A stretch of DNA of 64,000 nucleotides from an uncultured virus (IMG/VR IMGVR_UViG_3300028805_000002) (taxonomy: Duplodnaviria; Heunggongvirae; Uroviricota; Caudoviricetes), in IMG/VR virus record IMGVR_UViG_3300028805_000002; one strand, 5' to 3'. Below, in pieces: positions 6,344 to 62,349 of this stretch (the first letter of the stretch is position 1; every line of letters begins with the position of its first letter). Under the pieces are notes generated by a model, which was given only the letters and a program-made list of their open reading frames with translations, made no database searches and had not been told where the DNA came from. Made by a program: the position numbers and the translations under genes.

Positions 6344-6356
6344 GGAGGAACAGAAA

Positions 6357-6557: not shown

Positions 6558-6629
6558 TATCAAATAAGTTACACATTTGATACCATAAAATGCTATAATA
6601 AAGAAAAATGGGTAAGGAGGGCAAACACA

Positions 6630-7266: not shown

Positions 7267-7269
7267 AAT

Positions 7270-8228: not shown

Positions 8229-8252
8229 GTACAATTTTTAAAACTTTTTTGA

Positions 8253-8283
8253 AAAGCAATCGTACAAATACGGTTGCTTTTTT
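8253..8283 (+). terminator. Rho-independent terminator
   Basis: AAGCAATCGTA-caaa-TACGGTTGCTT followed by a T run. Confidence 0.75.
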
Positions 8284-8419
8284 ATTTGTATGCTTATGTC
8301 AAAGGGGAAGGTAATTATGAGAGACATAAGCAACGAACTATTAGAAATAATGGAACGCTACAAATGTAACGAAGTAATTGCTTTCCTTATTTTAATACAG
8401 AGCGAGAAGGTATAAGTCT

Positions 8420-8800
8420 GTGGGTTGGCAATACTATAATCCTAATCCTAAAGCAAATCTTGTAGGTGACTGTGTTGTACGAGCAATCTCGTTGGCTCTT
8501 AATCAAGATTGGGACACATCTTACTTAGGTGTAACTACGCAAGGATATGAATTAAAAGATATGCCATCTTCAAATGCTATTTGGAGTGCTTACTTAAAGC
8601 ATAACGGGTTTAAACGCTACATCATTCCAGACACTTGCCCTGATTGTTATACGGTTAAAGATTTTTGTATTGACAATCCTGAAGGCTTGTATCTTCTTGC
8701 AACAGGCACGCACGTTGTTACTTGTGTAAATGGTGATTACTACGACACTTGGGACAGCGGTAACGAAATTCCAATCTATTACTTTAAGAAGGAGAACTGA
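8420..8800 (+). CDS. Conserved hypothetical protein, possible papain-like Cys/His fold
   Basis: NPNP...GDCVVRAI and THVV...YYDTWDSG motifs. Confidence 0.55.
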   Translation: MGWQYYNPNPKANLVGDCVVRAISLALNQDWDTSYLGVTTQGYELKDMPSSNAIWSAYLKHNGFKRYIIPDTCPDCYTVKDFCIDNPEGLYLLATGTHVVTCVNGDYYDTWDSGNEIPIYYFKKEN

Positions 8801-8802
8801 CA

Positions 8803-9207
8803 ATGGCATTTGGTTACAATCCGTATCAACAGTATTATCAACCCACACAGCAGTATATGCCACAAATGGTTACTAATAATACGCAACAGCAAAATGATGG
8901 CATCACCTGGGTTCAAGGAGAAAACTCTGCAAAATCTTATCCAGTAGCGGCAGGGAGAAGTGTGCTTTTAATGGACAGCGAAAGTCCTGTTATGTATATC
9001 AAGTCAACAGACCAATCAGGTGTTCCTTTGCCGTTGAGAATTTTTGACTACAAAGAACGCTCACAATCGAGTTCTAACGCACAAGAGCAAAAAACAGAAT
9101 ATATCTCACGAAACGAGTTTGACGCGTTTAGAAACGAAATCAGAGCGGAATTAAAGCAATCTAAACAACAGACTAATAACACATATAAGAAAAATAAGGA
9201 GGAGTGA
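8803..9207 (+). CDS. Hypothetical protein with Gln/Tyr-rich N-terminus
   Basis: RBS AAGGAG; WVQGE..AKSYPVA motif. Confidence 0.6.
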   Translation: MAFGYNPYQQYYQPTQQYMPQMVTNNTQQQNDGITWVQGENSAKSYPVAAGRSVLLMDSESPVMYIKSTDQSGVPLPLRIFDYKERSQSSSNAQEQKTEYISRNEFDAFRNEIRAELKQSKQQTNNTYKKNKEE

Positions 9208-9449
9208 TTATGAGTTCACCTCTTTATCAGCAACTTCAACCGCATAATAACTTTATAAGTATGCTCAATCAATTTAAGCAAAACCCAATGTCTATGCTTT
9301 CTCGTAAGTATAACATTCCACAAGATATGACAGACCCAAACCAAATACTTCAGTATTTGCTTAACAGCGGTCAGGTAAGTCAAGAACAGATAAACAGGGT
9401 TATGAAGATGAAGAATGACCCACAATTTCAAAACTTAATTAAGAACTAA
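9204..9449 (+). CDS. Hypothetical Gln/Asn/Met-rich protein
   Basis: Coupled ORF; DPNQILQYLLNSGQVSQEQ. Confidence 0.6.
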   Translation: MIMSSPLYQQLQPHNNFISMLNQFKQNPMSMLSRKYNIPQDMTDPNQILQYLLNSGQVSQEQINRVMKMKNDPQFQNLIKN

Positions 9450-9608
9450 TTAAAAGCGACTCCGCTAAGATATGGGAAGGTAGCACGGAGTCGCTCTCAG
9501 GAAGTAAAAACCGAATGAGAAGTCTAATCACATTGGATATTTCTATTTTAATTCAGTTTTCTATTAGTTGCAACAGTAGATATAAAAATTTATGAAAGGA
9601 GAACTATT

Positions 9609-10460
9609 ATGACTAATGGTTCAGAACAAATGGTAATGCCAGTAGCACCTATGTACGGAAGTGGAAGCAACGGTTTCGGCTCTTGGGGCGGGGACGGTTG
9701 GTGGATTTTACTTCTTCTCTTGTTCGCAGGCGGCGGCTGGGGTAACGGCTTCGGCGGCGGTTTCGGAAACGCTATGTTAGGTTACGATTTTCCTTGGCTT
9801 CTTAATGGACAGTCTGGAATTAACGCAAACACTAACAACGGATTCCAGAACGCTCTGCTCAACGACAATGTTACTTCCATTCGTGATGGAGTATCTGCAT
9901 TATCCACTCAACTCTGTAATTGTTGCGGAGATATTTCTCAGCAGTTGTGTAGCGGATTTGCTGGCGTAACCGCATCTGTAAACGGTGCGCAGAACGCCGT
10001 AGCACAGCAACTTTACACCAATCAGATTGCAGATATGGAAAGAAGTTTCAATGCTCAGACAGCCTCTACACAGGGTATGCAGGCAATTCAGTCTCAGTTG
10101 GCACAGTGTTGCTGTGATAACAAAGCCGCAACGGCAGATGTTAAGTACACAATCGCAACAGAGGCTTGCAATACAAGACAGGCAAATACTGCCAATACTC
10201 AGGCTATTCTTGACAAACTTTGTCAACTTGAACTCGATGGCTATAAGAGGGAGAACGACAATCTCCGTACTCAACTCAATATGGCTACTCTGTCTGCTAG
10301 CCAGACGGCACAGAACGCATTTATCCAAAAGGGTTTCTCTGATGAGGTTGATGCGCTCTACAATAGGCTTTCTAACTGCCCTGTTCCGTCAACACCCGTT
10401 TACGGCAGAACTCCAATTTTCACTTGCAATCAGAATGTAGGTTGCGGTTGCGGAATGTAA
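9609..10460 (+). CDS. Gly-rich membrane-anchored coiled-coil protein with Cys-Cys motifs
   Basis: GGDGWWILLLLLFAGGGWG, CNCC, QCCCD, C-terminal CGCG; strong RBS. Confidence 0.65.
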   Translation: MTNGSEQMVMPVAPMYGSGSNGFGSWGGDGWWILLLLLFAGGGWGNGFGGGFGNAMLGYDFPWLLNGQSGINANTNNGFQNALLNDNVTSIRDGVSALSTQLCNCCGDISQQLCSGFAGVTASVNGAQNAVAQQLYTNQIADMERSFNAQTASTQGMQAIQSQLAQCCCDNKAATADVKYTIATEACNTRQANTANTQAILDKLCQLELDGYKRENDNLRTQLNMATLSASQTAQNAFIQKGFSDEVDALYNRLSNCPVPSTPVYGRTPIFTCNQNVGCGCGM

Positions 10461-10475
10461 TGTGAGGTGATACGT

Positions 10476-10928
10476 ATGGCTGAATATCTTGCTAATGCAG
10501 TACAGAATGTGGCAGTTAATGCCCCTGTAATCTTTTCGGCATCTATACCTTGCACTCGTGGTTGTGTTTATCACGAGGACGAAACAGGTGTTTTTATTCT
10601 CCGTGGTATCACTAATAATTGTTTTGCTCGTTATCAAGTTATATTCAACGGTAATGTTGCAATACCCGAAGGCGGTGACATTACTCCTATCGCTATCGCA
10701 GTTACAGTTCAGGGTGAACAGCGCCTTACGAGTAGAGCAATTTATACTCCGCAAGCCGTTGACGAGTATGGTAATCTGACCAGTACGGCAATTATTACAG
10801 TTCCTAAGGGTTGTTGTATGACTGTTGCAGTTGAGTATGTTGACGCAACTACTGATGACCCGACAGTAACACCCACACCGCTTATTGAGGTTCAAAATGC
10901 TAACCTCACCATTACACGTATTGCGTGA
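10476..10928 (+). CDS. Beta-sandwich protein, BclA C-terminal-like
   Basis: HEDETGVFILRG...YQVIFNGNVA...VQNANLTITRIA pattern; RBS GAGGTGA. Confidence 0.5.
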   Translation: MAEYLANAVQNVAVNAPVIFSASIPCTRGCVYHEDETGVFILRGITNNCFARYQVIFNGNVAIPEGGDITPIAIAVTVQGEQRLTSRAIYTPQAVDEYGNLTSTAIITVPKGCCMTVAVEYVDATTDDPTVTPTPLIEVQNANLTITRIA

Positions 10929-10941
10929 GAAAGGAGAAAGT

Positions 10942-11418
10942 ATGAAAGTATTATATGAAATACAGGATATACTCGAAGATGAACTTAAAAAGATTTGTAA
11001 GAAAGAAGAAATCTCCTCGACAGACCTCGAAAACATCTATAAGATGGTCGACATTGTTAAGGACGTCACAACCGTCGATGCTATGCACAAGGCAGAGCAA
11101 GAAGGGTACTCAAGAGATTACGCAAGAGATTATTCGAGAGGCTATTCAGACGATTACGCCAACGCTTATGGTTCTTATAACTCTTATGCTCGCAGAGGGC
11201 GTGATGGTGACGGCGATGGAAGATATAGCGAAGATGGTTCTTATCGTAGAGGCCGTGACGCTATGGGTCGCTTTACTAGTCGTGACAGTTCATACGACGG
11301 TTATAGCCGACATAGTAAAGACGAGATGATTGAGCACCTCACAGAGATGATGCACAACGCTCGTAATGAGGACGAAAGAGAAAGTTATCGTAAAGCGATT
11401 GAACAGATGAAAAGATGA
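10942..11418 (+). CDS. Hypothetical protein with Tyr/Ser/Arg/Gly/Asp low-complexity core
   Basis: YSRDYARDYSRGYS and RRGRD repeats; RBS AAGGAG. Confidence 0.65.
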   Translation: MKVLYEIQDILEDELKKICKKEEISSTDLENIYKMVDIVKDVTTVDAMHKAEQEGYSRDYARDYSRGYSDDYANAYGSYNSYARRGRDGDGDGRYSEDGSYRRGRDAMGRFTSRDSSYDGYSRHSKDEMIEHLTEMMHNARNEDERESYRKAIEQMKR

Positions 11419-11474
11419 TGTTATAATAAATTATTAGAACATTCTTTGTTATTGTTCTGTCTTTCTTTTGGGAG

Positions 11475-11508
11475 AGTAGCGAGAGGAGAGGCTCGCTACT
11501 TTTCTTTT
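11475..11508 (+). terminator. Rho-independent terminator
   Basis: AGTAGCGAG/CTCGCTACT stem and T tract. Confidence 0.75.
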
Positions 11509-11521
11509 GCATAAATTTTTG

Positions 11522-11550
11522 TTGACTTACGCTCAATCGTTTAGTATAAT
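11522..11550 (+). promoter_or_regulatory. SigA-type promoter with ATCGTTTAG spacer motif
   Basis: TTGACT-17nt-TATAAT. Confidence 0.8.
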
Positions 11551-11596
11551 GTTCGTAGTTATGTAGCAAAGTACACTGAAAGAGAGCGAAAACTAG

Positions 11597-13324
11597 ATGA
11601 TAAACATTGAAATCAAAACGAGCAAACAATGTAATGGAGAATACTCATTGTTCGTGTCTTTTAATTATGATGAAACTGTTATAAGTATTATAAAGTCATT
11701 TCCTACTCGGTCTTACGACAAGACAAATAAAACGTGGGAACTTCCGTTTAATCAACTTGGAAATCTTGTAAACAGTCTGTCCGAGTACGACATTACTATT
11801 ACAGGAAAATACATAAAACTTGAAACGCACGAAAAACAGATACCAAATGATTTTAAGTTCAAAACAAAACCCTTTGAGCATCAACTTGAGGGTATTAGGT
11901 ATGGACTTAATCACGACAAGTGGTTGTTAGGCGATGAACAAGGACTTGGAAAGACAAAACAAGTAATTGATATTGCTAACATTAAAAAGGTAAAGCACTG
12001 TCTCATTGTTTGTTGTGTAAATGGTCTTAAATGGAACTGGCAGAATGAGGTTCGCACGCACTCTAACGAAGATGCGTGGATATTAGGACAGCGCACAAAT
12101 CGTAACAACAAGGTTGTTATAGGCGATAATCCAGACAGATTAGACGATTTAATGCACATAGATGAACTGCCAAGATTTATTATAACTAACATTGAAACCC
12201 TGCGATACAAAGTAAAAACAGGAAGAAAGATACAAGTAAAAGTCAAAGGTAAACTTAAAGAGGTCGATGAATATCGTTACCCTATTACAGAGAGATTACA
12301 AGAACTCTGTTCTATGGGCGAGATTGTAATGATTGCGGCAGACGAGGTTCACAAGTGTAAAAATCCAGAGGCTGACCAGACAGAGCAATTACTTAAACTG
12401 CACACATCAACACAGATTGCGATGACGGGTACTCCGCTTATGAACGCACCTATTGATTTGTATGCGCTACTCAACTGGCTTGGATATGAGAAACACACTT
12501 TCTGGCAGTTTAAAAATCACTATGGCAGACTCGGTGGATTTAACGGAACACAGGTTGTCGGCTATAAGAATTTAGACGAACTCACGGATATGCTTGACAC
12601 AATGATGTTGCGCAGACTTAAAGAGGACGTATTAGACTTGCCTGAGAAGACACGTATAAATGTCTATCTTGATATGGGCAAAGAGCAGACAGAGATATAT
12701 AACGGAGAATACAAGAGTATTGACGCTACTAAAATCAGGATGTCAAACAATCCTCTTGCTGAACTCATTAGACTGCGACAAGCGACAGGCAACCCTAGTA
12801 TCTTGTGTCCGTCTATAAAAGAGAATGTAAAGTTTGACCGACTTGACGCAGATGTAGAAGATGCTGTGGCAAACGGAAGAAAGGTAATAATCTTCTCTAA
12901 TTGGACACAGGTTGTAAATCCTGCGTTTGCACGTTTGTCAAAGAAGTATAAAGGTGTAATGATTACAGGTGATACAAAAGATAACGAAAGACAGGCTAAT
13001 GTAGAGGCATTTCAGAATGACCCAAATGTGCATTTCATAATTGGCACTATTGGTGCTATGGGAACTGGTCTCACGTTAACGGCAGGCTCTCTTTTGATAT
13101 TCTTAGACGAGCCGTGGAATATGGCACTAAAAGAACAAGCGGAAGATAGAGGACACAGAATTGGTCAGACCAACAGATTAACAGTTCTAACTTATCTATG
13201 TAAAAACACGATTGATGAACGCATAAATAGTCTTGTTGAGAGAAAGGGACAGATAGCAGACATTATAGTTGACGGCACAGCCGAAGGAGATAAAAACGCT
13301 TTAATTAACTACTTGCTATCGTAA
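11597..13324 (+). CDS. SNF2-family helicase/ATPase
   Basis: DEQGLGKT, DEVH, MTGTP, MLRRLK, QAEDRGHRIGQ. Confidence 0.92.
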   Translation: MINIEIKTSKQCNGEYSLFVSFNYDETVISIIKSFPTRSYDKTNKTWELPFNQLGNLVNSLSEYDITITGKYIKLETHEKQIPNDFKFKTKPFEHQLEGIRYGLNHDKWLLGDEQGLGKTKQVIDIANIKKVKHCLIVCCVNGLKWNWQNEVRTHSNEDAWILGQRTNRNNKVVIGDNPDRLDDLMHIDELPRFIITNIETLRYKVKTGRKIQVKVKGKLKEVDEYRYPITERLQELCSMGEIVMIAADEVHKCKNPEADQTEQLLKLHTSTQIAMTGTPLMNAPIDLYALLNWLGYEKHTFWQFKNHYGRLGGFNGTQVVGYKNLDELTDMLDTMMLRRLKEDVLDLPEKTRINVYLDMGKEQTEIYNGEYKSIDATKIRMSNNPLAELIRLRQATGNPSILCPSIKENVKFDRLDADVEDAVANGRKVIIFSNWTQVVNPAFARLSKKYKGVMITGDTKDNERQANVEAFQNDPNVHFIIGTIGAMGTGLTLTAGSLLIFLDEPWNMALKEQAEDRGHRIGQTNRLTVLTYLCKNTIDERINSLVERKGQIADIIVDGTAEGDKNALINYLLS

Positions 13325-13376
13325 ATAACATATATTATAATGTTTATAGTTTAATAAATGAAAGAAAGGAGACAAG

Positions 13377-13643
13377 ATGGGACTTACGCTTTTAAGAATT
13401 GAAGAAGTTGCCCTGCTTTGTGGCGTTTCTGTTCAGTCAATAAATAACTGGTACAAGTTTAAGCGAGAAAATCCTGATAACGAGTATGCAAGACTGTTGC
13501 CTGAATACACTACGCTTGAAGGCAGTAGACAAAGACAGTGGAACAAAGCGGACATCAGTGCTCTTATTGAGTTTAAGCAAAAAATGCCTAAAGGATGTAA
13601 GGGAGTTATGGGGTCTGTAACACAACGATACGTAAAAAAGTGA
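13377..13643 (+). CDS. HTH DNA-binding protein
   Basis: IEEVALLCGVSVQSINNWY HTH. Confidence 0.7.
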   Translation: MGLTLLRIEEVALLCGVSVQSINNWYKFKRENPDNEYARLLPEYTTLEGSRQRQWNKADISALIEFKQKMPKGCKGVMGSVTQRYVKK

Positions 13644-13652
13644 GGTGATAAA

Positions 13653-14072
13653 ATGTCAGAAGAAGAAAGACAGGCTAAATATAATGAACTTGTATTACAA
13701 GCCACTGATTACGCTTACAACAAATCAATAGAGGGCGGATTAAAAAAGAAACTGGATAGTGCTAACACGGCTGTTAAGGCTCTTATGGAACTGTTGCAGT
13801 TAGACGAAGTTAAAACTCAAGATGGCGCAACTGTGTGTTACAGTGTAACAACTCAGGAGAGTTTGGATGAAGAACAACTGATTATGCTATTACATAATGT
13901 TGCACCGACTACGCGCTGTATCAAAACAAAAGAATATATTGATATGGATATTCTTGAGAGTGAACTCTATCACGGAGAACTGTCAGAGGAAGCATTAAAC
14001 GCGATTGCGAGTTGCAGAAGAACAAAAGAAATACCGAAGTTGACTATTAAGAAAGCGAAGAAAGGAAAGTGA
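13653..14072 (+). CDS. Hypothetical protein
   Basis: RBS GAGGTGA; IKTKEYIDMDILES motif. Confidence 0.6.
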   Translation: MSEEERQAKYNELVLQATDYAYNKSIEGGLKKKLDSANTAVKALMELLQLDEVKTQDGATVCYSVTTQESLDEEQLIMLLHNVAPTTRCIKTKEYIDMDILESELYHGELSEEALNAIASCRRTKEIPKLTIKKAKKGK

Positions 14073-14073
14073 T

Positions 14074-14232
14074 ATGAATATTTACATTAGTCCTTTTGTG
14101 CTTGGTGTAATCTGCACCATTGGCTCTGAAATCATAGCGTTAATTTTAACTGTTATGTTTTTCAGTTTAAAGCATAGTCGTAAAACGCGCAGAAATGCGT
14201 CTAATTCGCAAAGGAGAGACATAGATGAATAA
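14074..14232 (+). CDS. 52-aa membrane peptide (not in ORF track)
   Basis: MNIYISPFVLGVICTIGSEIIALILTVMFF; fills the gap between genes. Confidence 0.45.
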   Translation: MNIYISPFVLGVICTIGSEIIALILTVMFFSLKHSRKTRRNASNSQRRDIDE

Positions 14233-14500
14233 AGACACTAATAACGAGAGCAACGCGCTTACAACGAAAACTAGAGCGTATAAATCTAAGGCTACTACAA
14301 CTAAGTTGGTTGCAACATCAAGAGCAAGCGTAAAAATCAATGATAATTTTTACACAGTTGAGATGTCGGAAGAACGCACTATCAATTCAACAGCAAGAGG
14401 TGTAAATCTTACACAGGAACAGCAGTTGTTATGGGATAGTGTAAACAACAGTGTTGATAACCAGATTATTGACATTAAAAATGCGTTTGCAAAACGCTAA
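14225..14500 (+). CDS. Hypothetical protein
   Basis: RBS AAGGAG; in operon. Confidence 0.6.
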   Translation: MNKDTNNESNALTTKTRAYKSKATTTKLVATSRASVKINDNFYTVEMSEERTINSTARGVNLTQEQQLLWDSVNNSVDNQIIDIKNAFAKR

Positions 14501-14515
14501 CGTGTATGCTATACT
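14487..14515 (+). promoter_or_regulatory. Promoter upstream of the initiator leader
   Basis: TTGCAA-17nt-TATACT with TG extension. Confidence 0.6.
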
Positions 14516-14675
14516 GTATTCATTCAAAAAGAGTGTAGCACTACATTCTTCTGTCGGTTATTTGGGTCAAGGAAATAACTGATACAACTAAATAACCGAC
14601 TAAACGGGCAATTAGTGTGAGTTCTTGACCAACTCAGACTAATTGCTTTTTTATTACTTATTAGGAGATACGTGT

Positions 14676-15515
14676 ATGCGATATGAAGTATTAGGATTTA
14701 ATCAAGAAAAAGTTGTTGAAGCAGGATTAGATGTAACAGACCTCTTCATCTTAAACTATATTATTCAGGCAAATGGTAATCCAACAATGGAACATATTGT
14801 TAAAGATGGTGTAGCGTATGTTTGGATTTGTCACGATACGTTCTTACAAGATTTGCCTATACTTCCTATTTCACCTGGAACATTTAGAAATATTTTATGT
14901 GACCTTAAACATAAGGGTTTAATAATGTCAGAGACTATTCGACTTGTTAAAGGTGCAAAGTCATATTACTCTGTTACCGCGCTTACGATGTCATTTTTAA
15001 ATGACGTCAGATGTCATTCTGAAATGACATCAGACAATATAACTAGTATATCATCAAATAATATTAAAACAGACACTACGGATATTACTAATAAACAACA
15101 AGAATTATTTAATACTAATAAAGAAGATACATATAAGGAAAAAATCGACCGCTTTGTTGAGGAGTACAACTCTACGTGTAAGTCACTTCCTAAGTGTGTG
15201 AGAATGAGTAGTAAACGTGGTAAAGGCATTCTTAATATTCTCAAGAAATTTTCAGACGAAGAGATTACTGAGGTTTTTAATAAATTAGAAGAGAGTGATT
15301 TTTGTTCTGGAAGAAGCGGTAAGTGGCGAGCAGACATTGATTTTATTTTAAGAGAAGACAAGTTCATTTCAGTTTTAGAAGGAAAATATGATAACAAGAC
15401 GCGTGGTTGTAGTGTAGAGACAATCTCTAGTACAGGTCCGAAATATCGTGTTTCAGCAGAAGAAAAAGAAGAAATGAGAAAGGCGGTAGAACGTGGAGAA
15501 CTCAAGGAATACTGA
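14676..15515 (+). CDS. Replication initiator (N-terminal wHTH, low-complexity linker)
   Basis: Precedes a DnaC-like loader; C-terminal WRADIDFIL...VLEGKYDN motif; ATG 14676 after AGGAGA. Confidence 0.75.
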   Translation: MRYEVLGFNQEKVVEAGLDVTDLFILNYIIQANGNPTMEHIVKDGVAYVWICHDTFLQDLPILPISPGTFRNILCDLKHKGLIMSETIRLVKGAKSYYSVTALTMSFLNDVRCHSEMTSDNITSISSNNIKTDTTDITNKQQELFNTNKEDTYKEKIDRFVEEYNSTCKSLPKCVRMSSKRGKGILNILKKFSDEEITEVFNKLEESDFCSGRSGKWRADIDFILREDKFISVLEGKYDNKTRGCSVETISSTGPKYRVSAEEKEEMRKAVERGELKEY

Positions 15516-16149
15516 TTGTTGGTACGCGAGTAACTGCACCGATGATTGTACTAGATGTGTGATATATCCACAGATGAAGTGGCAATTTGATAATAGCGGA
15601 TTGCCGAAGACTAAGTATATGCCGATACATTTAAGACCACAGCCAGGCGATGTTCGAGCATTTAATAAGTTGGCAGAAGTTCGAGAAAACATAGACGAGT
15701 TTGTTGAGCAAGGAAAGAACTTGTATATCTGCGGTGAGATGCCCGGTAACGGCAAGACTAGTTGGGCAATAAAGATGTTGCAGACATATTTTCATTATGT
15801 TGCTGAAGGAAATCTGTTTACTGTAAAAGGGATGTTTGTCTCTGTTCCAGACTTGCTCTTAAAGATGAAAGACTTTAGCAACCCATTGTCGAGTGAATAT
15901 AAGGAAAATTTAAAGTCGTGCGATTTACTTATTCTTGATGATATAGCAGTAACAGGAATATCGCAGTATGACTATCTGCAATTATTCACTTTAATTGATA
16001 GCAGAATGTTAGCGGGCAAGTCGATTATATTTACATCTAACGTAACAAGTATAAAGAAGTTAGAAGAAATTATCGGTGAGAGATTATCCAGTAGAATATT
16101 CGGTAATAGTTTAGTAGTTGAAATAAAGGGCGGTGATATGCGTGGTTGA
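15493..16149 (+). CDS. DnaC/IstB-like helicase loader ATPase
   Basis: GEMPGNGKT Walker A, LLILDD Walker B, IFTSN, RLSSRI. Confidence 0.85.
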   Translation: MENSRNTDCWYASNCTDDCTRCVIYPQMKWQFDNSGLPKTKYMPIHLRPQPGDVRAFNKLAEVRENIDEFVEQGKNLYICGEMPGNGKTSWAIKMLQTYFHYVAEGNLFTVKGMFVSVPDLLLKMKDFSNPLSSEYKENLKSCDLLILDDIAVTGISQYDYLQLFTLIDSRMLAGKSIIFTSNVTSIKKLEEIIGERLSSRIFGNSLVVEIKGGDMRG

Positions 16150-17467
16150 GTTACAGATAATTGCAAAAATTCTAAAGACAGGTAATTTTGCTCTTGTCGA
16201 AAGCAACGGTATCACTGAAGATTTTTTCAAAGGCAAGAAAGACAGTAAAGGAAAAGAAACAAAAGGATTTGTTGACGAGTACAGATTTATTAAAGACCAC
16301 GTTGAGAAATATGGAAATGTCCCTGATACAGAAACTTTCTTATCCGCTTTTCCGATATATAAAGACGGTGGATTGCCTGACGTATTCGAGAGTGACGAGT
16401 TTTTAGTTGACAAGATACGAGAGGAGCACTTATTCAGACAGGGCGCACCGATATTGCAGAGAGCCGCAGAGATATTCTTGGAAGATGCCAATGCTGGTGT
16501 TGAATATATGCTCAAAGCATTACAAGACCTGCAAGTAAACTATAATCTCGGTGGAACAGATATTATTGCGCAAGCAGACCAGAGATTGGAGCATTTAAAA
16601 GAGCGCATTGAAAATCAAGACCAGTGGTATTTCAGTAGTGGCTTTCCTGAGTTAGACACTGTTATGCACGGCATAAAGCGCGGTGAAGAACTCTTAGTAA
16701 TCTTTGCTCGTACTAATCAGGGCAAGTCCTGGGTTCTTGAGAAGATGATTGCTCACATTTGGAAACAGGGTTTTAATGTCGGCTATATATCTCCTGAGAT
16801 GGGTGCAGACAGTATCGGATATAGATTTGATACGCTGTATAAGGGTTTTTCAAATTCAAACTTGGTATGGGGCAACAAAGACACGGATGTTGACGCATAC
16901 GCACAGTATATTGATGAACTCAAAGAGCAGAAGAATAAATTTGTCGTTGCAACTCCAAAAGACTTTGGCAGAACAATAACTGTAAGCAAATTAAGACAGT
17001 GGGTTAAACAGCAGAAGTTAGAGGCGTTAGCAATAGACGGTATAACTTATCTGACTGACGAGCGAGGAAAAAGAAATGACAATAAGACAACTTCATTGAC
17101 CAACATAAGTGAAGATTTAATGTCGTTGTCTGTTGACCTCGGTATACCGATTTTAGTAGTTGTTCAGGCAAATAGAAACGGTGTAATTGATAAAGACAGC
17201 GATGGCACACCAGAACTTGAAAGTATACGAGACAGTGACGGCATATCTCATAATGCAACGAAAGTTATCTCTTTACGTCAGAAAGACGGCGGACTTGATT
17301 TGAACTTGCCGAAGAATAGAGAAGGACGCGTTAATGTTCGTTTTCGTTATTTATGGAATATTAACACTGGTGAGTTTATTTACACAGAGAACACAGACAC
17401 CGCTACACCAGAAGAGAAAGCAGAACGTAGAGAGCGAAAGAAAGCAACAGGAAAGGATATATTCTAA
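16142..17467 (+). CDS. dnaB: DnaB-like replicative helicase
   Basis: ARTNQGKS Walker A, AIDG, VQANR, DSDGISHNA. Confidence 0.85.
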   Translation: MVELQIIAKILKTGNFALVESNGITEDFFKGKKDSKGKETKGFVDEYRFIKDHVEKYGNVPDTETFLSAFPIYKDGGLPDVFESDEFLVDKIREEHLFRQGAPILQRAAEIFLEDANAGVEYMLKALQDLQVNYNLGGTDIIAQADQRLEHLKERIENQDQWYFSSGFPELDTVMHGIKRGEELLVIFARTNQGKSWVLEKMIAHIWKQGFNVGYISPEMGADSIGYRFDTLYKGFSNSNLVWGNKDTDVDAYAQYIDELKEQKNKFVVATPKDFGRTITVSKLRQWVKQQKLEALAIDGITYLTDERGKRNDNKTTSLTNISEDLMSLSVDLGIPILVVVQANRNGVIDKDSDGTPELESIRDSDGISHNATKVISLRQKDGGLDLNLPKNREGRVNVRFRYLWNINTGEFIYTENTDTATPEEKAERRERKKATGKDIF

Positions 17468-18429
17468 TGCAGATAAACGATATTATCATTGACGCTGATG
17501 TATCAGAAATCTTGACTGCGCTTAGAGAACAACTAGCCGAGCACGGAATAATGCGGTTTGAGAAGATAGTTGATAGCGGCGAAGATGTTATGGTTCAGTG
17601 TCCATATCACAAAGACGGACAAGAGCGTAGACCAAGTGCTGGCATAAGAAAGTCCGATGGTTTGCTTCATTGTCTTGCGTGTGGAGAAACACACTCATTA
17701 CCAGAAGTCATAGGTTTTTGCTTTGGTCGTGATATGTTTTTTGGCTATAACTGGCTTATGAAAAACTTTGGTGCTTTATCAGAACAAGACAGACAACCAA
17801 TAAATCTAAACTTATCAAGAACACCTAGTATATCTGTGCAGGAGTATGTGTCTGAAGATGAACTTGACAGTTATCGGTATACGCATCCTTATATGTATGA
17901 GCGAGGACTGACTGATGAAATTATTGAGATGTTTGACATAGGATATGATAAGAGTACAGACAGCATCACATTTCCAGTCAGGGATATTAAAGGCAACACA
18001 TTATTCGTTGCGCGTAGAACAATTAAGTATAAGAGTTTTAACATTCCTAAAAACGTAGATAAACCCTTATATGGTGATTACGAATTGTCACAGTTACTTC
18101 AAACAAAAGAAGGTGTTGACAAGTTTAAAGAAGTGTATGTGTGTGAGGGATTATTCGATTGTTTGAGATTATGGTGTGTAGGAAAGTATGCAGTAGCGGG
18201 GTTCGGGTGTTTGTTTAGTGATAAGCAGATAAAAGACTTATGCGAGTTACCTACACGTAAACTTATCTTTGCACTGGATAATGATAAGGCAGGAATATCT
18301 GCAACAGAGCGATTGAAGAAATTAGTCAGAGGAAAAATTATGACAACGGCAATACTTCCGTATAATCGCAAAGATATTGGTGAGTGTACCGATGACGAAC
18401 TCAAAAATTTGCGTGAAACTCTTTATTGA
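17467..18429 (+). CDS. dnaG: DNA primase (CHC2 zinc finger and TOPRIM)
   Basis: CPYH...CLAC, VCEGLFD, LDNDKAG, KDIGE. Confidence 0.9.
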   Translation: MQINDIIIDADVSEILTALREQLAEHGIMRFEKIVDSGEDVMVQCPYHKDGQERRPSAGIRKSDGLLHCLACGETHSLPEVIGFCFGRDMFFGYNWLMKNFGALSEQDRQPINLNLSRTPSISVQEYVSEDELDSYRYTHPYMYERGLTDEIIEMFDIGYDKSTDSITFPVRDIKGNTLFVARRTIKYKSFNIPKNVDKPLYGDYELSQLLQTKEGVDKFKEVYVCEGLFDCLRLWCVGKYAVAGFGCLFSDKQIKDLCELPTRKLIFALDNDKAGISATERLKKLVRGKIMTTAILPYNRKDIGECTDDELKNLRETLY

Positions 18430-18454
18430 CTTTTGTATAATCGTTTAGTATAAT
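18426..18454 (+). promoter_or_regulatory. SigA-type promoter with ATCGTTTAG spacer motif
   Basis: TTGACT-17nt-TATAAT. Confidence 0.8.
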
Positions 18455-18508
18455 GATTATGTATCAATGATACGCTAAACACAAAAACATTAAGAAAGGA
18501 AACATTTT

Positions 18509-19210
18509 ATGGGCAGACTACTTGGTGACAACATTGAACAGTTCAGCACAGGAAGTGGCGGTGGAAAGGGCAGTTATTTTTCGTTGAAGAACGATAAAGA
18601 AACTGCAAGAGTACGTTTTCTTTACGAGAGCGCAGGAGACATTGAGGGTTTCACTGTTCACAAAGTAAGAGTTGGAGACAGAGACAGATACGTTAATTGT
18701 ATTGCAGATGAAGGAGAGTGTCCGTTCTGTCGCGCAGGTCTTCAGAAGTTTGTTAAGATTTTTGTACCGCTGTTTAACGAGACAACAGGACAACTTCAGA
18801 CTTGGGAAAGAGGACAGAAGTTCTACGGCAAACTCTCTGGTTTGTGTTCAAGATACAACAATCTTACTTCTCGTGTATTTGAGATTGAGCGTAATGGCAA
18901 GCCTAAGGACACACAGACAACGTATGAGATTTATCCTGTAGGTGATGCAGACGGCACAACTCTTGATGATATTCTTGACGATTGTGGCGTTGATGAACTC
19001 GCAAATCCTCTCGGCACAATCATTCTCAACAAGACCGCAGACGATATGGAATATTATCTCAGAAACGAGGATTTTCCGAGCAAGGACGAAGCACCAGTTA
19101 GACGTAGAGGCAGAGCAGAAGAGCCTGATGATTTGCCGTTTGAAGCAGAAGAGGAAGAAAGACCGCGCAGAGAGGGCAGAACTGGTAGAGGTAGAGCCAG
19201 AGGTTTCTAA
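18509..19210 (+). CDS. Single-stranded DNA-binding protein (gp32-like)
   Basis: YFSLKND..ARVRFL, CPFC, RNG...TTYEI, acidic DDLPF tail. Confidence 0.75.
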   Translation: MGRLLGDNIEQFSTGSGGGKGSYFSLKNDKETARVRFLYESAGDIEGFTVHKVRVGDRDRYVNCIADEGECPFCRAGLQKFVKIFVPLFNETTGQLQTWERGQKFYGKLSGLCSRYNNLTSRVFEIERNGKPKDTQTTYEIYPVGDADGTTLDDILDDCGVDELANPLGTIILNKTADDMEYYLRNEDFPSKDEAPVRRRGRAEEPDDLPFEAEEEERPRREGRTGRGRARGF

Positions 19211-21534
19211 TGAAGCAGATTTCATTGTTTGACGATTTAAGTCGGCCAGATAAGTCCGAAGACATAGCACTCGTCAAGAAGTCCAATTCTAAATCTAAGA
19301 AGATTACTCCCACAAAGAAAAGTGGGAGTTTATCTTCTAAGATAAAATTTATCCGTGAGTTTGTTGAGCAGTATCTTGGCAAGTATAGAGATAAATACAT
19401 CTGTATTCGAGACGTTGATACATTACATAAATATGTTGATACGTGTCTTGCAGATGGAAGAATTGCGCTTGATACAGAGACAACAGGACTTAATGTGTTT
19501 CAAGATAAAATCGTAGGAATAAGTTTGACTTCTAAAAACAATAAACCCGCGTACATTCCAATAAATCACGTTATTTACAATGTTGCAGACAACTCTTTTA
19601 CGCTGGCTGAAAATCAGTTGACGATAGAGCAGATACTTCCAGAGTTGAAAAGACTGGCTAACGTGTCTGAAGTCGATATGTTTAACGCCGTATTCGATAA
19701 GCGCGTTATAAAGCACGGATTTGGAATTTACTTTCCTTGCACTTTTGATACTTCTATTGGCGCAAAGATGCTGAATGAGTTGAAGCCGCCGAAGTGGTAT
19801 AAACTTAAAATCGTTCACTGTGAGTGGTGTCTTGACGGTAAGGAAGACGAGTTCTCATTTGACGAACTTTTTAACGATGTTGGATTTGATAAAGTGCCTA
19901 TTGACGTTGGTTATTTGTATGCGTGTCGTGACGCGGAGATTACTTATGAGTTGTCAGACTTTGAGCGTCAATATCTGTATTACAATCCAGAGCAGGATTT
20001 TAGTGCAAGAAATGGTATGAACGGTGCGTCTTGGTGTTTCTTCAATATAGAGATGCCTTGTGAAGATGCTACAATGGAACTCGAAGAAAACGGCGTTACG
20101 CTTGATTTGGAGTATCAAAAACAACTCTCTATTAGGTATCATCAACTCGAAGAAGATGTGCTGAAAAAGTTTAACGAGAGTTTACTGCCATATCAAGACA
20201 CAATAAACGCATTACGTAGTAGAGGTGCTAAACTCGACAATCCAATAAACATCAACAGTACGTCACAGTTGCCTATTCTGTTGTATGACATCTTGGGACT
20301 TGATGCTGGAATAAATAAAAGAACAAAGAAACCCGAGCGCGGTACAGGAGAAGAAGTATTAGCAAAACTTAATCACCCTATTGTTGACATTATTAAAGAG
20401 TATCGAGGCGTTAAGAAACTTATTAGCACGTATATAGATAAGTTGCCTAAGTGTCTTGAGAGCGACGGAAAGATACACGGACAGTTTCATCAATATGGTG
20501 CAAGAACAGGTAGATTTAGTTCATCAGACCCAAATCTTCAAAACATACCGAGTAAGAACAAAGACATACGACCGATGTTCGTTGCAAGTCCGGGACATCT
20601 TTTGATTTCAATGGACTATTCACAGCAAGAGCCTTCTTGTCTTGCGTCATTCTGCAAGAAAATGGGATATGATGCGTTGTTCAATGCAAGATTTAAGGGC
20701 AACGATTTGTATAGTGAGGTTGCTAGTGCTATCTTCAATTTGCCTTATGAGGACTGTGTTGAGCATAGAGCAGACGGCAGTATCAATAAAGAAGGCAAGA
20801 AGAGAAGAAACGACGCAAAGCCAGTTCTTTTGGGCATCTTGTATGATAGAGGAGATGATAGCGTAGCAGAGGCACTCGATATTTCATTAGAAGAGGCAAA
20901 GCGACTTCATCAAAATCTGTATAAAAGATTTCCAGAGATATTGGTTTTTGAGCAAGAAAGTGTTAAGATGGCAACAGAGTTGGGTTACGTTGATACAATC
21001 TGTGGACGTAAGTGTAGAATACCTGATATGTTACTTGACGAGTACGAGTTTGAATGGGTAGACGCACCGAAGAATGATGATGTGCTCGATTTCGAGAATG
21101 ACGTTGACACACAGGTGCCAGATGACTTATGCGACAAGTATTGGAACAAGTTACATCGAAAGTATGCTAAGAAAAGAGAAATCTTTAAAGAAGCCAACGA
21201 AAAAGACGGAATATGGATTATTGATAACAGAACAAAGATAGCAGACGCTACAAGACAATGTGTTAATAGTCGTATTCAAGGAAGTGCCGCAGACCTTACG
21301 AAGAAAGCGATGCAAGAGGTACTTAAAAATAAGAGACTGACGGAACTTGGATTTAAGTTGATAATTCAAGTACACGACGAACTTATTGGCGAGTGTCCAG
21401 AAGAGAACATCAAAGAGTGTTCGGAGTTATTAGCAGAAGTAATGTCTAAGGCCGCAGAAGAGTTGATTGGTATGCCGTTCTCTTGTGACGCAGAGATTTC
21501 ACGCGCTTGGTACGGTGAAAGATATGAAATTTAA
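19210..21534 (+). CDS. polA: Family A DNA polymerase with 3'-5' exonuclease
   Basis: DTETTG, TGRFSSSDPNLQNIP, DYSQQE, IQGSAAD, QVHDE; N-terminal QISLF. Confidence 0.95.
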   Translation: MKQISLFDDLSRPDKSEDIALVKKSNSKSKKITPTKKSGSLSSKIKFIREFVEQYLGKYRDKYICIRDVDTLHKYVDTCLADGRIALDTETTGLNVFQDKIVGISLTSKNNKPAYIPINHVIYNVADNSFTLAENQLTIEQILPELKRLANVSEVDMFNAVFDKRVIKHGFGIYFPCTFDTSIGAKMLNELKPPKWYKLKIVHCEWCLDGKEDEFSFDELFNDVGFDKVPIDVGYLYACRDAEITYELSDFERQYLYYNPEQDFSARNGMNGASWCFFNIEMPCEDATMELEENGVTLDLEYQKQLSIRYHQLEEDVLKKFNESLLPYQDTINALRSRGAKLDNPININSTSQLPILLYDILGLDAGINKRTKKPERGTGEEVLAKLNHPIVDIIKEYRGVKKLISTYIDKLPKCLESDGKIHGQFHQYGARTGRFSSSDPNLQNIPSKNKDIRPMFVASPGHLLISMDYSQQEPSCLASFCKKMGYDALFNARFKGNDLYSEVASAIFNLPYEDCVEHRADGSINKEGKKRRNDAKPVLLGILYDRGDDSVAEALDISLEEAKRLHQNLYKRFPEILVFEQESVKMATELGYVDTICGRKCRIPDMLLDEYEFEWVDAPKNDDVLDFENDVDTQVPDDLCDKYWNKLHRKYAKKREIFKEANEKDGIWIIDNRTKIADATRQCVNSRIQGSAADLTKKAMQEVLKNKRLTELGFKLIIQVHDELIGECPEENIKECSELLAEVMSKAAEELIGMPFSCDAEISRAWYGERYEI

Positions 21535-21546
21535 GGAGGTAACCGT

Positions 21547-22284
21547 ATGTCTAACATTGACAATGTAGTTCCAGGAGACAAGTGGGAATTTGACGCTGAA
21601 GTAGCCGACTGTTTTTCTGATATGCTGTCACGCTCTATTCCTCAGTATGACGTTATGCGTGACACATCCGCAAGTCTGGCCACTGACATTATTCAGCAGA
21701 ATAACGCGTATCGAGATTTTAATTTGCTCGATATTGGTTGCTCTGACGGACTTATGATACAAACGCTGTTGCAGAAGTTGAAAGGTAACAAGGGAAGAAT
21801 ATTGGGTGTAGATGTTTCTGAGCCGATGTTACAGAAAGCAGAGGAGAGATTTAAACTCAATAACGGTGTATCAAGTATTTCCGTTGCTATTCAGAATTGC
21901 GATTTACGTTATGCGTTTCCTAAGAACAACTATGACGTAATCACATCCATTCTTTCAATTCAGTTTATACCGATTGAGTATAGACAGACGATACTTCAAA
22001 ACATCTATGATAACTTAGTTCCCGGCGGTGCTTTTATCTTTGTTGAGAAAGTTCTGGGCAATACAGCAGAGTTGAACAAGTTATTTGTTAAGGAATACTA
22101 CGACTTAAAGAAACAGAATGGATATTCAGAAGACCAGATTGAGCGTAAGCGATTATCTCTTGAGGGTGTTCTTGTACCAGTAACGAGCGATTGGAACAAA
22201 TCCCTGTTACAGCAAGCAGGTTTCAGACAGATTGATGATTTTTGGAGGTGGATGAACTTTGTCGGATATATTGCAATCAAATGA
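21547..22284 (+). CDS. cmoA: Carboxy-S-adenosylmethionine synthase (CmoA family)
   Basis: WEFDAEVA..F.DMLSRSIPQY, DIGCSDG, SIQF, PGGAFIFVEK, NGYS..QI..KRLSLEGV, WMNF match the CmoA pattern along the whole length. Confidence 0.88.
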   Translation: MSNIDNVVPGDKWEFDAEVADCFSDMLSRSIPQYDVMRDTSASLATDIIQQNNAYRDFNLLDIGCSDGLMIQTLLQKLKGNKGRILGVDVSEPMLQKAEERFKLNNGVSSISVAIQNCDLRYAFPKNNYDVITSILSIQFIPIEYRQTILQNIYDNLVPGGAFIFVEKVLGNTAELNKLFVKEYYDLKKQNGYSEDQIERKRLSLEGVLVPVTSDWNKSLLQQAGFRQIDDFWRWMNFVGYIAIK

Positions 22285-35375: not shown

Positions 35376-35450
35376 TGAGGTGTCGCCAAGCGGTAAGGCA
35401 TTGGTCTTTGACTCCAACACTCGTAGGTTCGATTCCTGCCACCTCAGCCA
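35376..35450 (+). tRNA. tRNA-Gln (TTG)
   Basis: TGAGGTG/CACCTCA acceptor, GCCAAGCGGTAAGGC D arm, CT-TTG-AC loop, GGTTCGATTCC, encoded CCA. Confidence 0.92.
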
Positions 35451-47463: not shown

Positions 47464-47523
47464 TGAATTAGTCCTCCTATGGAATCGTTATTATTTTGTT
47501 TGTTGCGCTTGCAACTCTTAATC

Positions 47524-47552
47524 ATTATACTAAACGATTGAATGGATTGCAA
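47524..47552 (-). promoter_or_regulatory. SigA-type promoter with ATCGTTTAG spacer motif
   Basis: Minus strand TTGCAA-17nt-TATAAT. Confidence 0.75.
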
Positions 47553-47632
47553 GCGTTATTTCTTGCGCCATTCAATCGTGTTGTATAGTTGTTGTATAGT
47601 TATAGTAGATTAAATGTTGCTCCGAGGAGCAA

Positions 47633-51977: not shown

Positions 51978-52253
51978 TTATGCCTGTGCGAGTATTTCGC
52001 CATCTTCATCTACCATAGCGATAAGACCTTCAAACACTTCCGTGTTCTCGATGTCACCTACCGCTACCCACTCACATCCTTCCTCAGGGTCTGCGTCATA
52101 TCCGACCATACTTCCGATGGTGTTTATGGCTTCCTGATACTGAAAGTACCTGTGCTCACACGCTTCTTCCTCAGGAAGATGTGCGAGTTTGTAAATTCTG
52201 TCAGGCACTTCCACTTCCTTAACTACGCTGACGATTACTCTAACCTTTGCCAT
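51978..52253 (-). CDS. Acidic hypothetical protein
   Basis: RBS AAGGAGG. Confidence 0.6.
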   Translation of the reverse strand: MAKVRVIVSVVKEVEVPDRIYKLAHLPEEEACEHRYFQYQEAINTIGSMVGYDADPEEGCEWVAVGDIENTEVFEGLIAMVDEDGEILAQA

Positions 52254-52769
52254 ACTAATTTCCTCCTTTGGGATATTCTGTCTATACTGACAAGGTAGTG
52301 TTTTGTATGTTCCCGATTGTTTACTTGTGGTGTTCCGCTCTGTATTGTCTAAGTTCCTTTAGTGTACATCTCTGAAGCCAGAGCCGCTTCTGCTGTTCCT
52401 TGATGGCGCGTTCTATCTTACCTCTTCCCATATATGCACTCCCTGGTAAGATACTGGCGAGTGCCCGGGACAATCTTCAGACAGGTCTGAAGTCCGTTTC
52501 TCTTAATGAGTTCCCGATACGGAATCTTGTATGTGATTGTGGATTTTGCTGTGTTGGTCATAGTGTAATTTCCTCCTAGGGGATATTTACTTCCCTATTC
52601 CTATCTTCCCATTTATATGTTCCCATACAAAACACTCCCTTGCCTGTATAGGCTGAGGGAGTGCTGAGTTGTGCGCTTTAAAGTGCCCAGTTGCGTGTCG
52701 CGTGTTTATGCGGGTTCACGCGTTTCCGTTCTGTCTACCGTATGGTGTCTTCCCGTATGAGGCTATGCC

Positions 52770-53273
52770 TCAGAATCCTAAGACCTCTGCAACACCGTCC
52801 CAGTTCTCTACCTTGAGGGCATATTCATTTGCCCAACCCTCGTGATGTTCCCAGTCGGAGCGTGTAGCCTTGAGTTCCTTGCCAGGGAAAACCCAGGCGC
52901 CGTCCTTGAGCGGTCTGATACGAGCGTAGGCTGTCTTGTCTCCCTCTACCTTAGAGATGAGGATGTGTCCCTTCGCGTTTGTTCTGAAGATGTACTTGTC
53001 CTTCGGGATGTCTGCTAAGAAGGCGTCGGCAGTGGGGTGCTTGCGTTCCTTCTTCTCTGCGGGTGCTTCCGGTGTCGGCTCTGCAGGTGTCTGTTCTGCG
53101 GGAATCTCTTCCTGAGTCTGTTCTGCGAGTGCCTTCTGTTCTGTCTGATATGCTTCAAAGATAGGCATAAAGTCAACTTTGGGCATCTGTTCTGTCTTGC
53201 CGTCAACTATGCGGGCAAAGTATGTCTTGTGATTTGTCTTGTATTCTGTGCCGTTGTATGTAAACTGTGTCAT
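52770..53273 (-). CDS. Early hypothetical protein with Pro/Glu linker
   Basis: RBS AGGAGGA before MTQFTY (the ORF-track start at 53345 is probably too long). Confidence 0.65.
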   Translation of the reverse strand: MTQFTYNGTEYKTNHKTYFARIVDGKTEQMPKVDFMPIFEAYQTEQKALAEQTQEEIPAEQTPAEPTPEAPAEKKERKHPTADAFLADIPKDKYIFRTNAKGHILISKVEGDKTAYARIRPLKDGAWVFPGKELKATRSDWEHHEGWANEYALKVENWDGVAEVLGF

Positions 53274-53355
53274 AATAAAATCCTCCTGTGATTTTGTAAA
53301 ATTGATTTTTTGATGTGGTGCAACTGAACACTTTAACGCGCACAACTCAGTGGCG

Positions 53356-53764
53356 CACGTTTTCGAGTGCTTTACTTTTGCGCATTGTTATATGCGCTTA
53401 GAAGTACAGGTCATCGTGTAAATCTTCGTGTAATTTGCGCGCGCTTGTAATTACGATTGTGTCGTTATACTCATCATTGACGCAAGTACGATAGAATAAG
53501 AAGAAATCATCAAATTCGGCACAATGTGAATTGAGTTCTGTAATACAGTCAAATATTATCTTTTCGATATTTTCAAATTCGCTGTAAAAGTCTTTATTGA
53601 TACAGCACAAAAAAGCATTACAATTTATCGCTTCATCAAATTGTGCTAAATTGTATTTTTCAAGAATTGAATAGTAGAGTTCATAATTTTTTGTCATTGT
53701 CTTTTATCTCACTTTCATTAGATTTTTTGAGACAATGCGCAAAAACAAAACACTCGAAAACGTG
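53356..53764 (-). repeat. 33-bp inverted repeat pair (53356-53388 / 53732-53764) enclosing ORF 53398-53697
   Basis: 30/33 identity; the three differences are G-U pairs in the minus-strand transcript. Confidence 0.9.
53398..53697 (-). CDS. First early gene: 99-aa acidic protein with no Gly, Pro or Trp (candidate anti-defence DNA mimic)
   Basis: 20 D/E versus 7 K/R; RBS AAAGTGAG; first ORF of the minus-strand arm. Confidence 0.6.
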   Translation of the reverse strand: MTKNYELYYSILEKYNLAQFDEAINCNAFLCCINKDFYSEFENIEKIIFDCITELNSHCAEFDDFFLFYRTCVNDEYNDTIVITSARKLHEDLHDDLYF

Positions 53765-54700
53765 ATATTTTGCGCGATATTTTGCACTTTGCATACATTT
53801 TGCGCTTAGATAAAATCAATTATCTAAGAATAGAGCGCGCACTTATAAAATACAGATAGACTTTCAAATTTACTCTAACAAACAATAGTGTTTGAGTGCA
53901 TTTCACAGCGTAGTAATGAACAAGACTTCAATACAACTATGCAACAAGTATATTGTCGTTCGCGTTTACTAATAATTCGCGCATAGTGTTTTTCTACTAT
54001 TCGCACTATTTCACAACAGTGCTATTTTATGACTGTTTATAGCAATAAACTCAAAAATCAACTAATTTTATAGTTAGTATTCACATACTAATAACTATTA
54101 TGCAATTCGTTTATCTAGTGAATTATAACAGCACTCGATTATAATAATCACGTACTATATTATTACACTTTACTATCAACACAGCGCAAACGATTAAATA
54201 GTTAAGTCTTGTTTTAGAATGATTATATTGTCGAACTAAAGTGTTAAATAATGCACATTACAAGTTACTTTGAGTGTAAGACAATACACTACACAAAATA
54301 CTTTTATTAGTTTTTTCTTTTGTGTTTTACGTTTTATCACGTTCTAAAACAGTGTCACTAATTACTTAAAAGAAACACAGTGTATTTTTTCAAGTATCAT
54401 TCACTAAACGCGTAAAAGACTAGTGATTTTTATCTGTATTTATTTGTCAAGTTACAGTGTTATTACTTAAAGTATTCGCAACAACTTTTTAGCACTCATT
54501 ACGCGTTAACTCGATATACTCGAATAATACGTTATACTTCAGCGCAAGAACTATAAACAACTAGTGATTATAGAGAACGTATGACTAACTTGTGTATGCT
54601 TGCTAGTTCGTTCTTTTGTTATGCATAGAGTAACGCTTATTAAACGATATTTCAATACAACTTTTGACTTATTTGTTCGATAACGAACAAAAACACGTCA
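53520..54700. other. GG/CC-free tract
   Basis: No GG or CC seen between the GG at 53518-19 and the GG at 54701-02. Confidence 0.9.
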
Positions 54701-54809
54701 GGTTGTTCGATAAATACATTAAAACAATAATAATTTATCATTATTCGATAAACGCTATATAATATGCTTATTATATATAATAAATACGCGTATGCGCATG
54801 GGGTAATAT

Positions 54810-54828
54810 GATAATGATTATCATTTTC
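54810..54828. promoter_or_regulatory. Fur-box-like operator
   Basis: GATAATGATTATCATTTTC versus consensus GATAATGATWATCATTATC (18/19). Confidence 0.55.
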
Positions 54829-55217
54829 AAATTCATACATTAGTCTAGTTAGTATCTTTATATAACAGATTATTAGTGTATAGCGCTGTAACGCTCATAT
54901 TTAACGTATAACGCGCTCTAGCACTTATACACAAGAATTTATATTCACAGCGCACGAGCGCGTCACAGATCAAATTTAAAATTTAAGTTAGCACGCATAT
55001 ACAAGCGCATACACACGGGCATATTTATACGCACGCGCGCGCGCGCACGTACACGGGATTCTCGAACTCTTACGTCGAACTTTGTAGACAAGTATGCGCG
55101 GTGCTTGAAAATAGAGGGGATTGGGCATAAAAGTAATCCTAGAGGTGGGTAGGTCGAGTGTGGTAGTAAGGTCGTTCAAGAACGACAGGAAAGGCGTGGA
55201 AAATTAAAAGTAAAATT

Positions 55218-55236
55218 GAGAATGATTATCATTTTC
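55218..55236. promoter_or_regulatory. Fur-box-like operator
   Basis: GAGAATGATTATCATTTTC (17/19). Confidence 0.5.
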
Positions 55237-55415
55237 AGTTTCAAGGTCGAGGTTTGTAGACAAAGTCTTGACTAATAGTAGGAGTATGTGTTATTTTGTA
55301 TATGTAATTGGAGAGATACAATGTTATCGAGGGTCTCTTAGTAAGTCGCCGCAGGGCGCAGGAACGACGGGTGATTAACAGTATATCTTTAGTTATAGAA
55401 GGATAATATAAATAT

Positions 55416-62202: not shown

Positions 62203-62349
62203 TTATGGCTCCTAACGATAATACAGGCAATACGCCTTTATTATATTGTCTCGTTCCAGACATTTAAACAGGAACACAATCAACGCAGACCGCGACTGCG
62301 ACATTATAAATAAAGCGGATATAAAAGATTGTTTTAGGAGGAATTTTTC

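Follow-up and report, generated by a model that had tools for sequence, protein, structure and literature searches.

The early RNase III sites of phages T7 and SP82 are local hairpins between genes, and in type I toxin mRNAs such as hok a long-distance pairing of the 5′ and 3′ parts around the ORF hides the RBS. In rRNA operons, the leader-trailer helices of pre-16S and pre-23S rRNA (processing stalks) are described as being cut by RNase III (PMC11404451, PMC4838370). In Bacillus subtilis, RNase III is reported to cut duplexes that are 10-36 bp long, the sites being up to 505 nt apart (PMC11780869). Judging by titles and the openings of abstracts, with subscription papers mostly outside this survey, the literature searched yielded no report of tandem stems enclosing phage protein genes.

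The window, the 64,000-nt stretch of DNA analysed here, covers positions 1-64000 of a virus record that is 72,399 bp long and rated complete. Its genes include those for replication, a leftward-pointing block of small ones (53697 to 39340) and, starting at 55416 and running rightward, those for terminase, portal and head. The best TerL match among cultured phages is 48% identical (Blautia and Clostridium phages), and blastn against cultured phages gave no match. One relative sits in a bin named Candidatus Fimenecus, and the host of the window phage is probably a member of the Firmicutes. Two RNA runs from a single sheep-gut sample contain 86% and 84%, respectively, of the sequence words in 52200-54000. 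An Rfam scan of the window found only a GP20-a motif before the scaffold gene (62244-62344; also present in L028 and L106, two relatives introduced below) and one tRNA (35376-35447), both outside the stem loops. Two near copies of TGAAAATGATAATCATT (54807-54826 and 55216-55237) precede terS in its upstream gap, close to a CGCG run (55030-55050), and are candidate packaging or terminase sites.

At the upstream end of the leftward block, three abutting stems with unrelated arm pairs enclose the first genes (Table 1). The preliminary description had reported the first of them, as a single unit. Its inverted repeat is indeed as claimed: the arms pair over 33 bp, 30 Watson-Crick and 3 G-U on the minus strand, the latter being 3 C-A on the plus strand, and the 343-nt loop contains the gene 1 ORF and its GTGAG RBS. 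The stem itself stands, therefore, but it does not stand alone, being the first of the three. The arms in the window lie 314-625 nt apart, the loop of stem 2 being the longest. Strand-symmetric scores of stems 1, 2 and 3 are 24, 22 and 19, respectively, whereas 40 block-wise dinucleotide shuffles of the window reached 17 at most, and the rest of the 72.4-kb genome has no further stem that is this large and has a long loop. Stems 1 and 2 form in both the MFE and the centroid folds of 52600-53800. Genes 1 and 2 have no Pfam or PHROG match, and Atlas and fold searches with them gave weak YdhG/YjbR/MotA-like rows only (Foldseek E at least 0.25; the MotA structural match has Z 5.3 and rmsd 6.5 with 89 aligned). 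The likeness of gene 2 to MotA/YjbR folds is weak and unproven, and with rows this weak none of the enclosed proteins is given a function. Searches of viral contigs for relatives through genes 1 and 2 found none, and a pattern search with the gene 1 leader had no match.

Table 1. Positions of the stems, genes, upstream features and RNA-library pieces in the window
Feature	Position	Strand	Basis or remark
Stem 1, 5′ arm	53732-53764	-	inverted-repeat sequence
Stem 1, 3′ arm	53356-53388	-	33 bp, 3 G-U, zero mismatch
Stem 2, 5′ arm	53320-53350	-	starts 5 nt past stem 1
Stem 2, 3′ arm	52664-52694	-	31 bp, tandem G-U, one G-A
Stem 3, 5′ arm	52624-52651	-	starts 12 nt past stem 2
Stem 3, 3′ arm	52282-52309	-	28 bp, 1 G-U, 2 mismatches
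Gene 1	53398-53697	-	99 aa, acidic, without Gly/Pro/Trp, no family match
Gene 2	52770-53273	-	167 aa, small phage family (8 relatives), C-terminal alpha/beta domain
Gene 3a	52418-52561	-	47 aa; similar peptides in corresponding loops of L005 and L028
Gene 3b	52321-52431	-	36 aa
Candidate sigma-70 promoter TTGAAA-17-TACTCT	54627-54655	-	sequence; predicted start ~54620
Non-coding leader, ~850 nt	53765-54620	-	folds better than shuffles
Tract without any GG or CC dinucleotide	53519-54700	.	dinucleotide count
Copies of promoter family TTGAC...ATCGTTTAG-TATAAT	11518, 18422, 24416, 29840, 34713	+	
Copy of the same promoter family	47519-47558	-	
X3 RNA pieces	52314-52625; 52686-53317; 53407-54606		adapter at both ends of 52686-53317
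X4 RNA pieces	52309-52686; 52690-53311; 53353-53728; 53774-54367		adapter at 53353

Relatives were collected by TerL or by the two genes before TerS (106 loci). Forty loci and the window were scanned for stems, the others having too little upstream DNA or being duplicates; 31 loci, including the window, reach 3 kb or more beyond the anchor gene on its upstream side. A tandem stem array is present in 5 of these 31: the window (3 stems), L005 (3, where the contig ends), L006 (2), L028 (2 and a decayed third) and L106 (5). The carriers other than the window are all four testable relatives at a TerL identity of 83-87%, L001-L004 being too short for the stem scan. L007, L009 and L016 (TerL 79-81%) and all more distant loci, 26 in all, have no array. 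Since these three sister phages do without it, the array is dispensable. All five array loci fall inside one TerL clade (12 rows, support 100/100), of which the L007/L009 branch has no stems. A single origin of the array within this clade is possible. None of 46 loci collected with the AAA gene has a tandem array, nor does positions 8000-22000 of Blautia phage Montmirail. Scan matches in L086 and L013 were rejected as multi-copy repeats or palindromes, not gene-enclosing pairs, and duplex folding of sequence windows of set size, one around each early ORF, gave too much noise to tell positives from negatives. Two side observations come from this collection. In L086 (2047-3948), a promoter-like repeat of 47-68 nt occurs in four copies that face one inverted copy, and the TerL of L009 (10001-11662) carries a C-terminal insertion of ~135 aa that is intein-like in look.

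The relatives keep the layout of the array, with changed arm sequences and often different genes in the loops. The 15 stems measure 25-36 bp, and 14 of them bear genes. In these 14, 21-65 nt separate the end of the 5′ arm from the ATG, 8-97 nt (mostly no more than ~25 nt) separate the stop codon from the 3′ arm, and the loop, 314-703 nt long, holds a complete RBS-ORF-stop unit. The arms always lie outside the coding sequence, and neighbouring stems are separated by linkers of 0-12 nt, two of which are 0 nt. The remaining stem (L106, 5188-5073, minus strand) is an empty cassette: a perfect 25-bp stem with a 64-nt loop that keeps a GGAGG and has no ORF. The paired ends around an ORF recall hok-type mRNA. 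However, in the phage stems the RBS and start codon are free in the loop.

The preliminary description had proposed that selection acts on an RNA helix and had suggested covariation in relatives as a check. Judging by position and by a shared GAAAGTGAGAT RBS context, the first stems of the window, L028 and L005 are homologous, and the expected double changes are found there: 10 between the window and L028, 9 between the window and L005 and 13 between L028 and L005, with 0-2 broken pairs, in arm alignments ~55% identical and with the reservation that stems picked for pairing yield double changes by construction. Moreover, when the arms of all 15 stems are trimmed by a strand-neutral rule, the coding strand has 396 Watson-Crick pairs out of 431 core pairs, 23 G-U, 4 A-C and 8 others. 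The ratio of 23 G-U to 4 A-C among the 35 non-Watson-Crick pairs has p=3e-4, in stems that are partly dependent (the same tandem G-U stands in stem 1 of both the window and L005). In stem 1 of the window alone, 3 of 3 G-U is weak (1 in 8), and significance is reached only across relatives. L028 shows the opposite, with 2 G-U and 3 A-C (5 A-C counting the decayed third stem) and slightly more stable antisense duplexes; with its third stem the pooled count becomes 23:6 (p=0.002). Fourfold-degenerate sites on the coding strand have A>T and C>G, which is the opposite of a C-to-T or A-to-G excess, so that mutational skew is unlikely to be the cause of the G-U bias. The excess of G-U over A-C on the coding strand makes RNA the likely level of selection. 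The covariation, the pairing bias, the non-coding arms and the RNA-library contigs described below all favour the earlier proposal, and on this comparative evidence an RNA helix is the likely target of selection rather than DNA.

Some observations could nevertheless be read as a role of the arms in DNA, either as inversion sites or as frames for gene exchange between phages. The loop genes vary among relatives while the arms stay: the stem-1 loop gene of L005 is a different protein, and one contig of run X5 (33-letter side) keeps both stem-1 arms around a loop under 85% alike, its loop (at most ~385 nt) and upstream DNA having no match at 85%. In addition, L028 lacks the G-U bias, and the window phage encodes a RecA-like recombinase. 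However, we consider this role improbable. Each stem has its own sequence and hence no shared recombinase site, and the complete genome has no tyrosine or serine recombinase (PF00589 and PF00239 absent; controls positive in 14 and 12 of 14). Furthermore, every looped gene in the five phages is oriented with the operon, and a strand-specific G-U bias would be useless in duplex DNA. The three unrelated arm pairs and the missing site-specific recombinase set the array apart from an invertible segment or shufflon, and DNA inversion, already judged the lesser possibility in the preliminary description, is accordingly disfavoured. Transposon ends were ruled out, as the arms differ between stems and abut.

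If the helices form in RNA, the closest parallel is the rRNA processing stalk. In both cases a long near-perfect helix with G-U pairs closes a whole transcribed unit, and successive stalks follow one another at short linkers. In the same scan, the host-type 16S leader-trailer helices of all 4 loci contained G-U and were 28-32 bp long, close to the range of the phage stems, and the earlier choice of this helix as a model was the right one. In contrast to rRNA stalks, the phage stems enclose protein genes with an RBS and no rRNA, each has its own sequence, up to five stand in a row, and their cutting is presumed. The best boxA score in the window leader is 8.9 bits, versus 19-24 for 7 host leaders with the same weight matrix; in L106 alone is there a match of 19 bits, which lies 284 nt ahead of the first of its five stems. 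This match (6918-6905, minus strand) is a one-mismatch copy of the host rrn boxA. Given the lack of rRNA and of boxA, the phage stem is not an rRNA processing stalk, though by analogy it would work like one.

The other suggested model, T7 early mRNA, did not hold: no gene-enclosing tandem stems were found in T7 1-7000 or SPO1 1-13500 by the ungapped scan, which T7's own hairpins escape. Unlike the local intercistronic hairpins of T7 and SP82, the window arms are far apart and enclose genes. What the two have in common is an early polycistronic message and host RNase III, the latter proposed here for the array (PMC3867540). The long-range RNase III substrates of B. subtilis, as described (PMC11780869), resemble the phage stems in duplex length, into whose 10-36-bp range the phage stems fit, and in spans of hundreds of nt, although the 625-nt loop of stem 2 exceeds the 505 nt seen there, which counts against RNase III. 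Those substrates are scattered single sites, whereas the phage arms form a dedicated non-coding tandem array, one per gene unit.

The following mechanism may be proposed from these comparisons. Three arm pairs of 28-33 bases enclose, one pair per unit, the three leading gene units of the leftward operon. A promoter near 54620 would transcribe the leader and all arms, which would pair once each gene has been transcribed. Host RNase III would then make a staggered cut in mid-stem, leaving ~10-15 bp, and each unit would be released as a separate mRNA with its 5′ and 3′ ends still paired. Both 5′ (RNase J) and 3′ exonucleases require single-stranded ends. The clamped ends would be shielded from them, so that the genes expressed earliest in infection would persist longer than the remaining operon. 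In our judgement there is about an even chance that the stems are cut in this way by host RNase III and that every unit leaves as an end-clamped mRNA. RNase III processing had been put forward in the preliminary description, and the geometry makes it plausible; for a sequence signature, the stems score no better than chance. The proximal/distal-box signature, in a motif rebuilt from published text with an assumed register, has no excess over permuted stems (p 0.25-0.61), each stem holding 4-5 of 6 of the half-site as permuted stems do. The Mini-III motif ACCU/AGGU occurs in 0 of 15 stems. The missing signature, the window leader's lack of a boxA and the sister phages that do without an array all weigh against the proposed cut. 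The window phage has no RNase III gene; the bin with L106 contains two RNase III family members. The arms, their geometry, their conservation and the strand bias are observed and make the stem layout a conserved, clade-specific RNA architecture; pairing in the transcript, the cut and its effect we infer.

The absence of the signature would also be expected if the helices form uncut and act as intact clamps, either with the linkers cut by another nuclease or with the whole rosette left standing. An uncut rosette would block exonucleases, hold each stop codon near its own RBS and favour re-initiation. The close spacing of most 3′ arms to the stop codons and of the 5′ arms to the ATG suits such clamps, and an RNase III-independent role is described for rRNA leader-trailer helices (PMC11404451). 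We regard them as unlikely, though not negligibly so, given that near-perfect duplexes of 25-36 bp have the right size for RNase III, whose sequence needs are described as loose (PMC1540722, PMC3867540), and that the two 0-nt linkers leave no single strand to cut.

Theoretically, the cut could have the reverse effect. Cleavage of long-range duplexes by RNase III is often the first step of decay, which speaks against stabilisation, and the long-range mRNA sites of B. subtilis are framed as decay-initiating (PMC11780869). RNase III might then serve as a timer, the cut uncoupling the first genes and starting their decay or stopping downstream expression. The geometry would be identical to that of end-clamped mRNAs. 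However, decay needs one site, not a closed stem per unit with arms outside the coding sequence, and single cuts that leave 3′ hairpins are reported to stabilise (PMC3867540). A timer therefore appears to us rather unlikely, more so than intact clamps.

RNA-library contigs from two runs of one sample, X3 and X4, cover the region (Table 1); they carry neither strand nor single-molecule ends. One contig, identical to the window, joins the leader, the 5′ arm and gene 1 (53407-54606), and another, also identical, joins gene 1 with the 3′ arm of stem 1 (53353-53728). Since leader, 5′ arm and gene 1 are thus bridged, a transcription start inside the repeat, which the preliminary description had named as the observation that would speak against an RNA helix, is unlikely to be the only one. 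All 12 contig ends in 52260-53785 lie within 19 nt of an arm, in a region where arms plus 20 nt make up 361 of 1523 nt. Seven of the eight arm-cluster-by-run places are broken, there are 0 breaks within a loop, and the DNA run X1, possibly the source of this DNA, is continuous through the arm places. The break at 52686-52690 coincides with the tandem G-U of stem 2, the best motif-based cut being 8 nt further out. A reverse-transcriptase block at a duplex would give much the same picture; the breaks are a lead only for processing, and uncovered parts prove nothing. Depths, one figure per contig in what is a single sample, are 9-82 over the leader and loops and 2-6 downstream, and 54620-55222 has zero RNA contig cover.

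The ends held together by a cut stem might also be ligated into circular mRNAs, as the preliminary description had considered, and the loops contain whole translation units. No back-joint or strand-change joint is listed for the two RNA runs, whose contigs show presence, not absence. The phage has no RtcB, and there is no RNA ligase match among 69 window proteins. RNase III ends (5′-phosphate, 3′-OH) are not RtcB substrates. The chemistry of RtcB ligation is described elsewhere (PMC3458531). Circularisation thus found no support, and we rate it the most improbable of these fates.

Upstream of all arms, the candidate promoter has the ATCGTTTA spacer word common to promoter family D1, pointing to a promoter near 54620. 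This family is repeated in the window, and its conserved spacer word is a possible phage-activator site. The leader (folding z = -4.2 versus 20 shuffles) is covered by RNA-library contigs, has no match in Rfam and is possibly an RNA in its own right. At the same place, the leaders of L106 and L006 are GC-richer and look structured by eye. The GG/CC-free tract of the window (0 in 1182 nt versus 51 expected) reaches into gene 1, and only 6 GG/CC occur in 53353-55016. L028 has 0 in 1667 nt (5822-7489) versus 102 expected, and L005 has such a tract at 1456-1920; none was seen in L006 and L106. The remaining dinucleotides in these tracts are normal or raised. One possible cause of the missing GG and CC is that the first-injected DNA avoids a PAM, a restriction site or a modification target. 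A leader and first cassette purged of GG/CC are expected if they have to escape a GG- or CC-dependent defence until their products act. The window phage also carries a CmoA gene, which has no match in L006, L007 and L009.

Taken as a whole, these observations allow a tentative reading, which we hold to be possible and less than probable, that a clade of gut phages rebuilt rRNA-operon maturation for protein genes. A rosette of stalks would be freed by RNase III into long-lived, end-clamped mRNAs (possibly re-initiating or circular), the stalks would serve as swap frames, and the DNA purged of GG/CC would evade defence. If this is true, these phages set the lifetime and dose of their first proteins through a layout so far known for rRNA, not for mRNA. 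The stems would then flag the genes most needed early and provide a handle for host-takeover and anti-defence proteins. In the same case, enclosing an ORF of choice in a 30-bp clamp would offer a simple and portable means of stabilising and separating mRNAs in Firmicutes.
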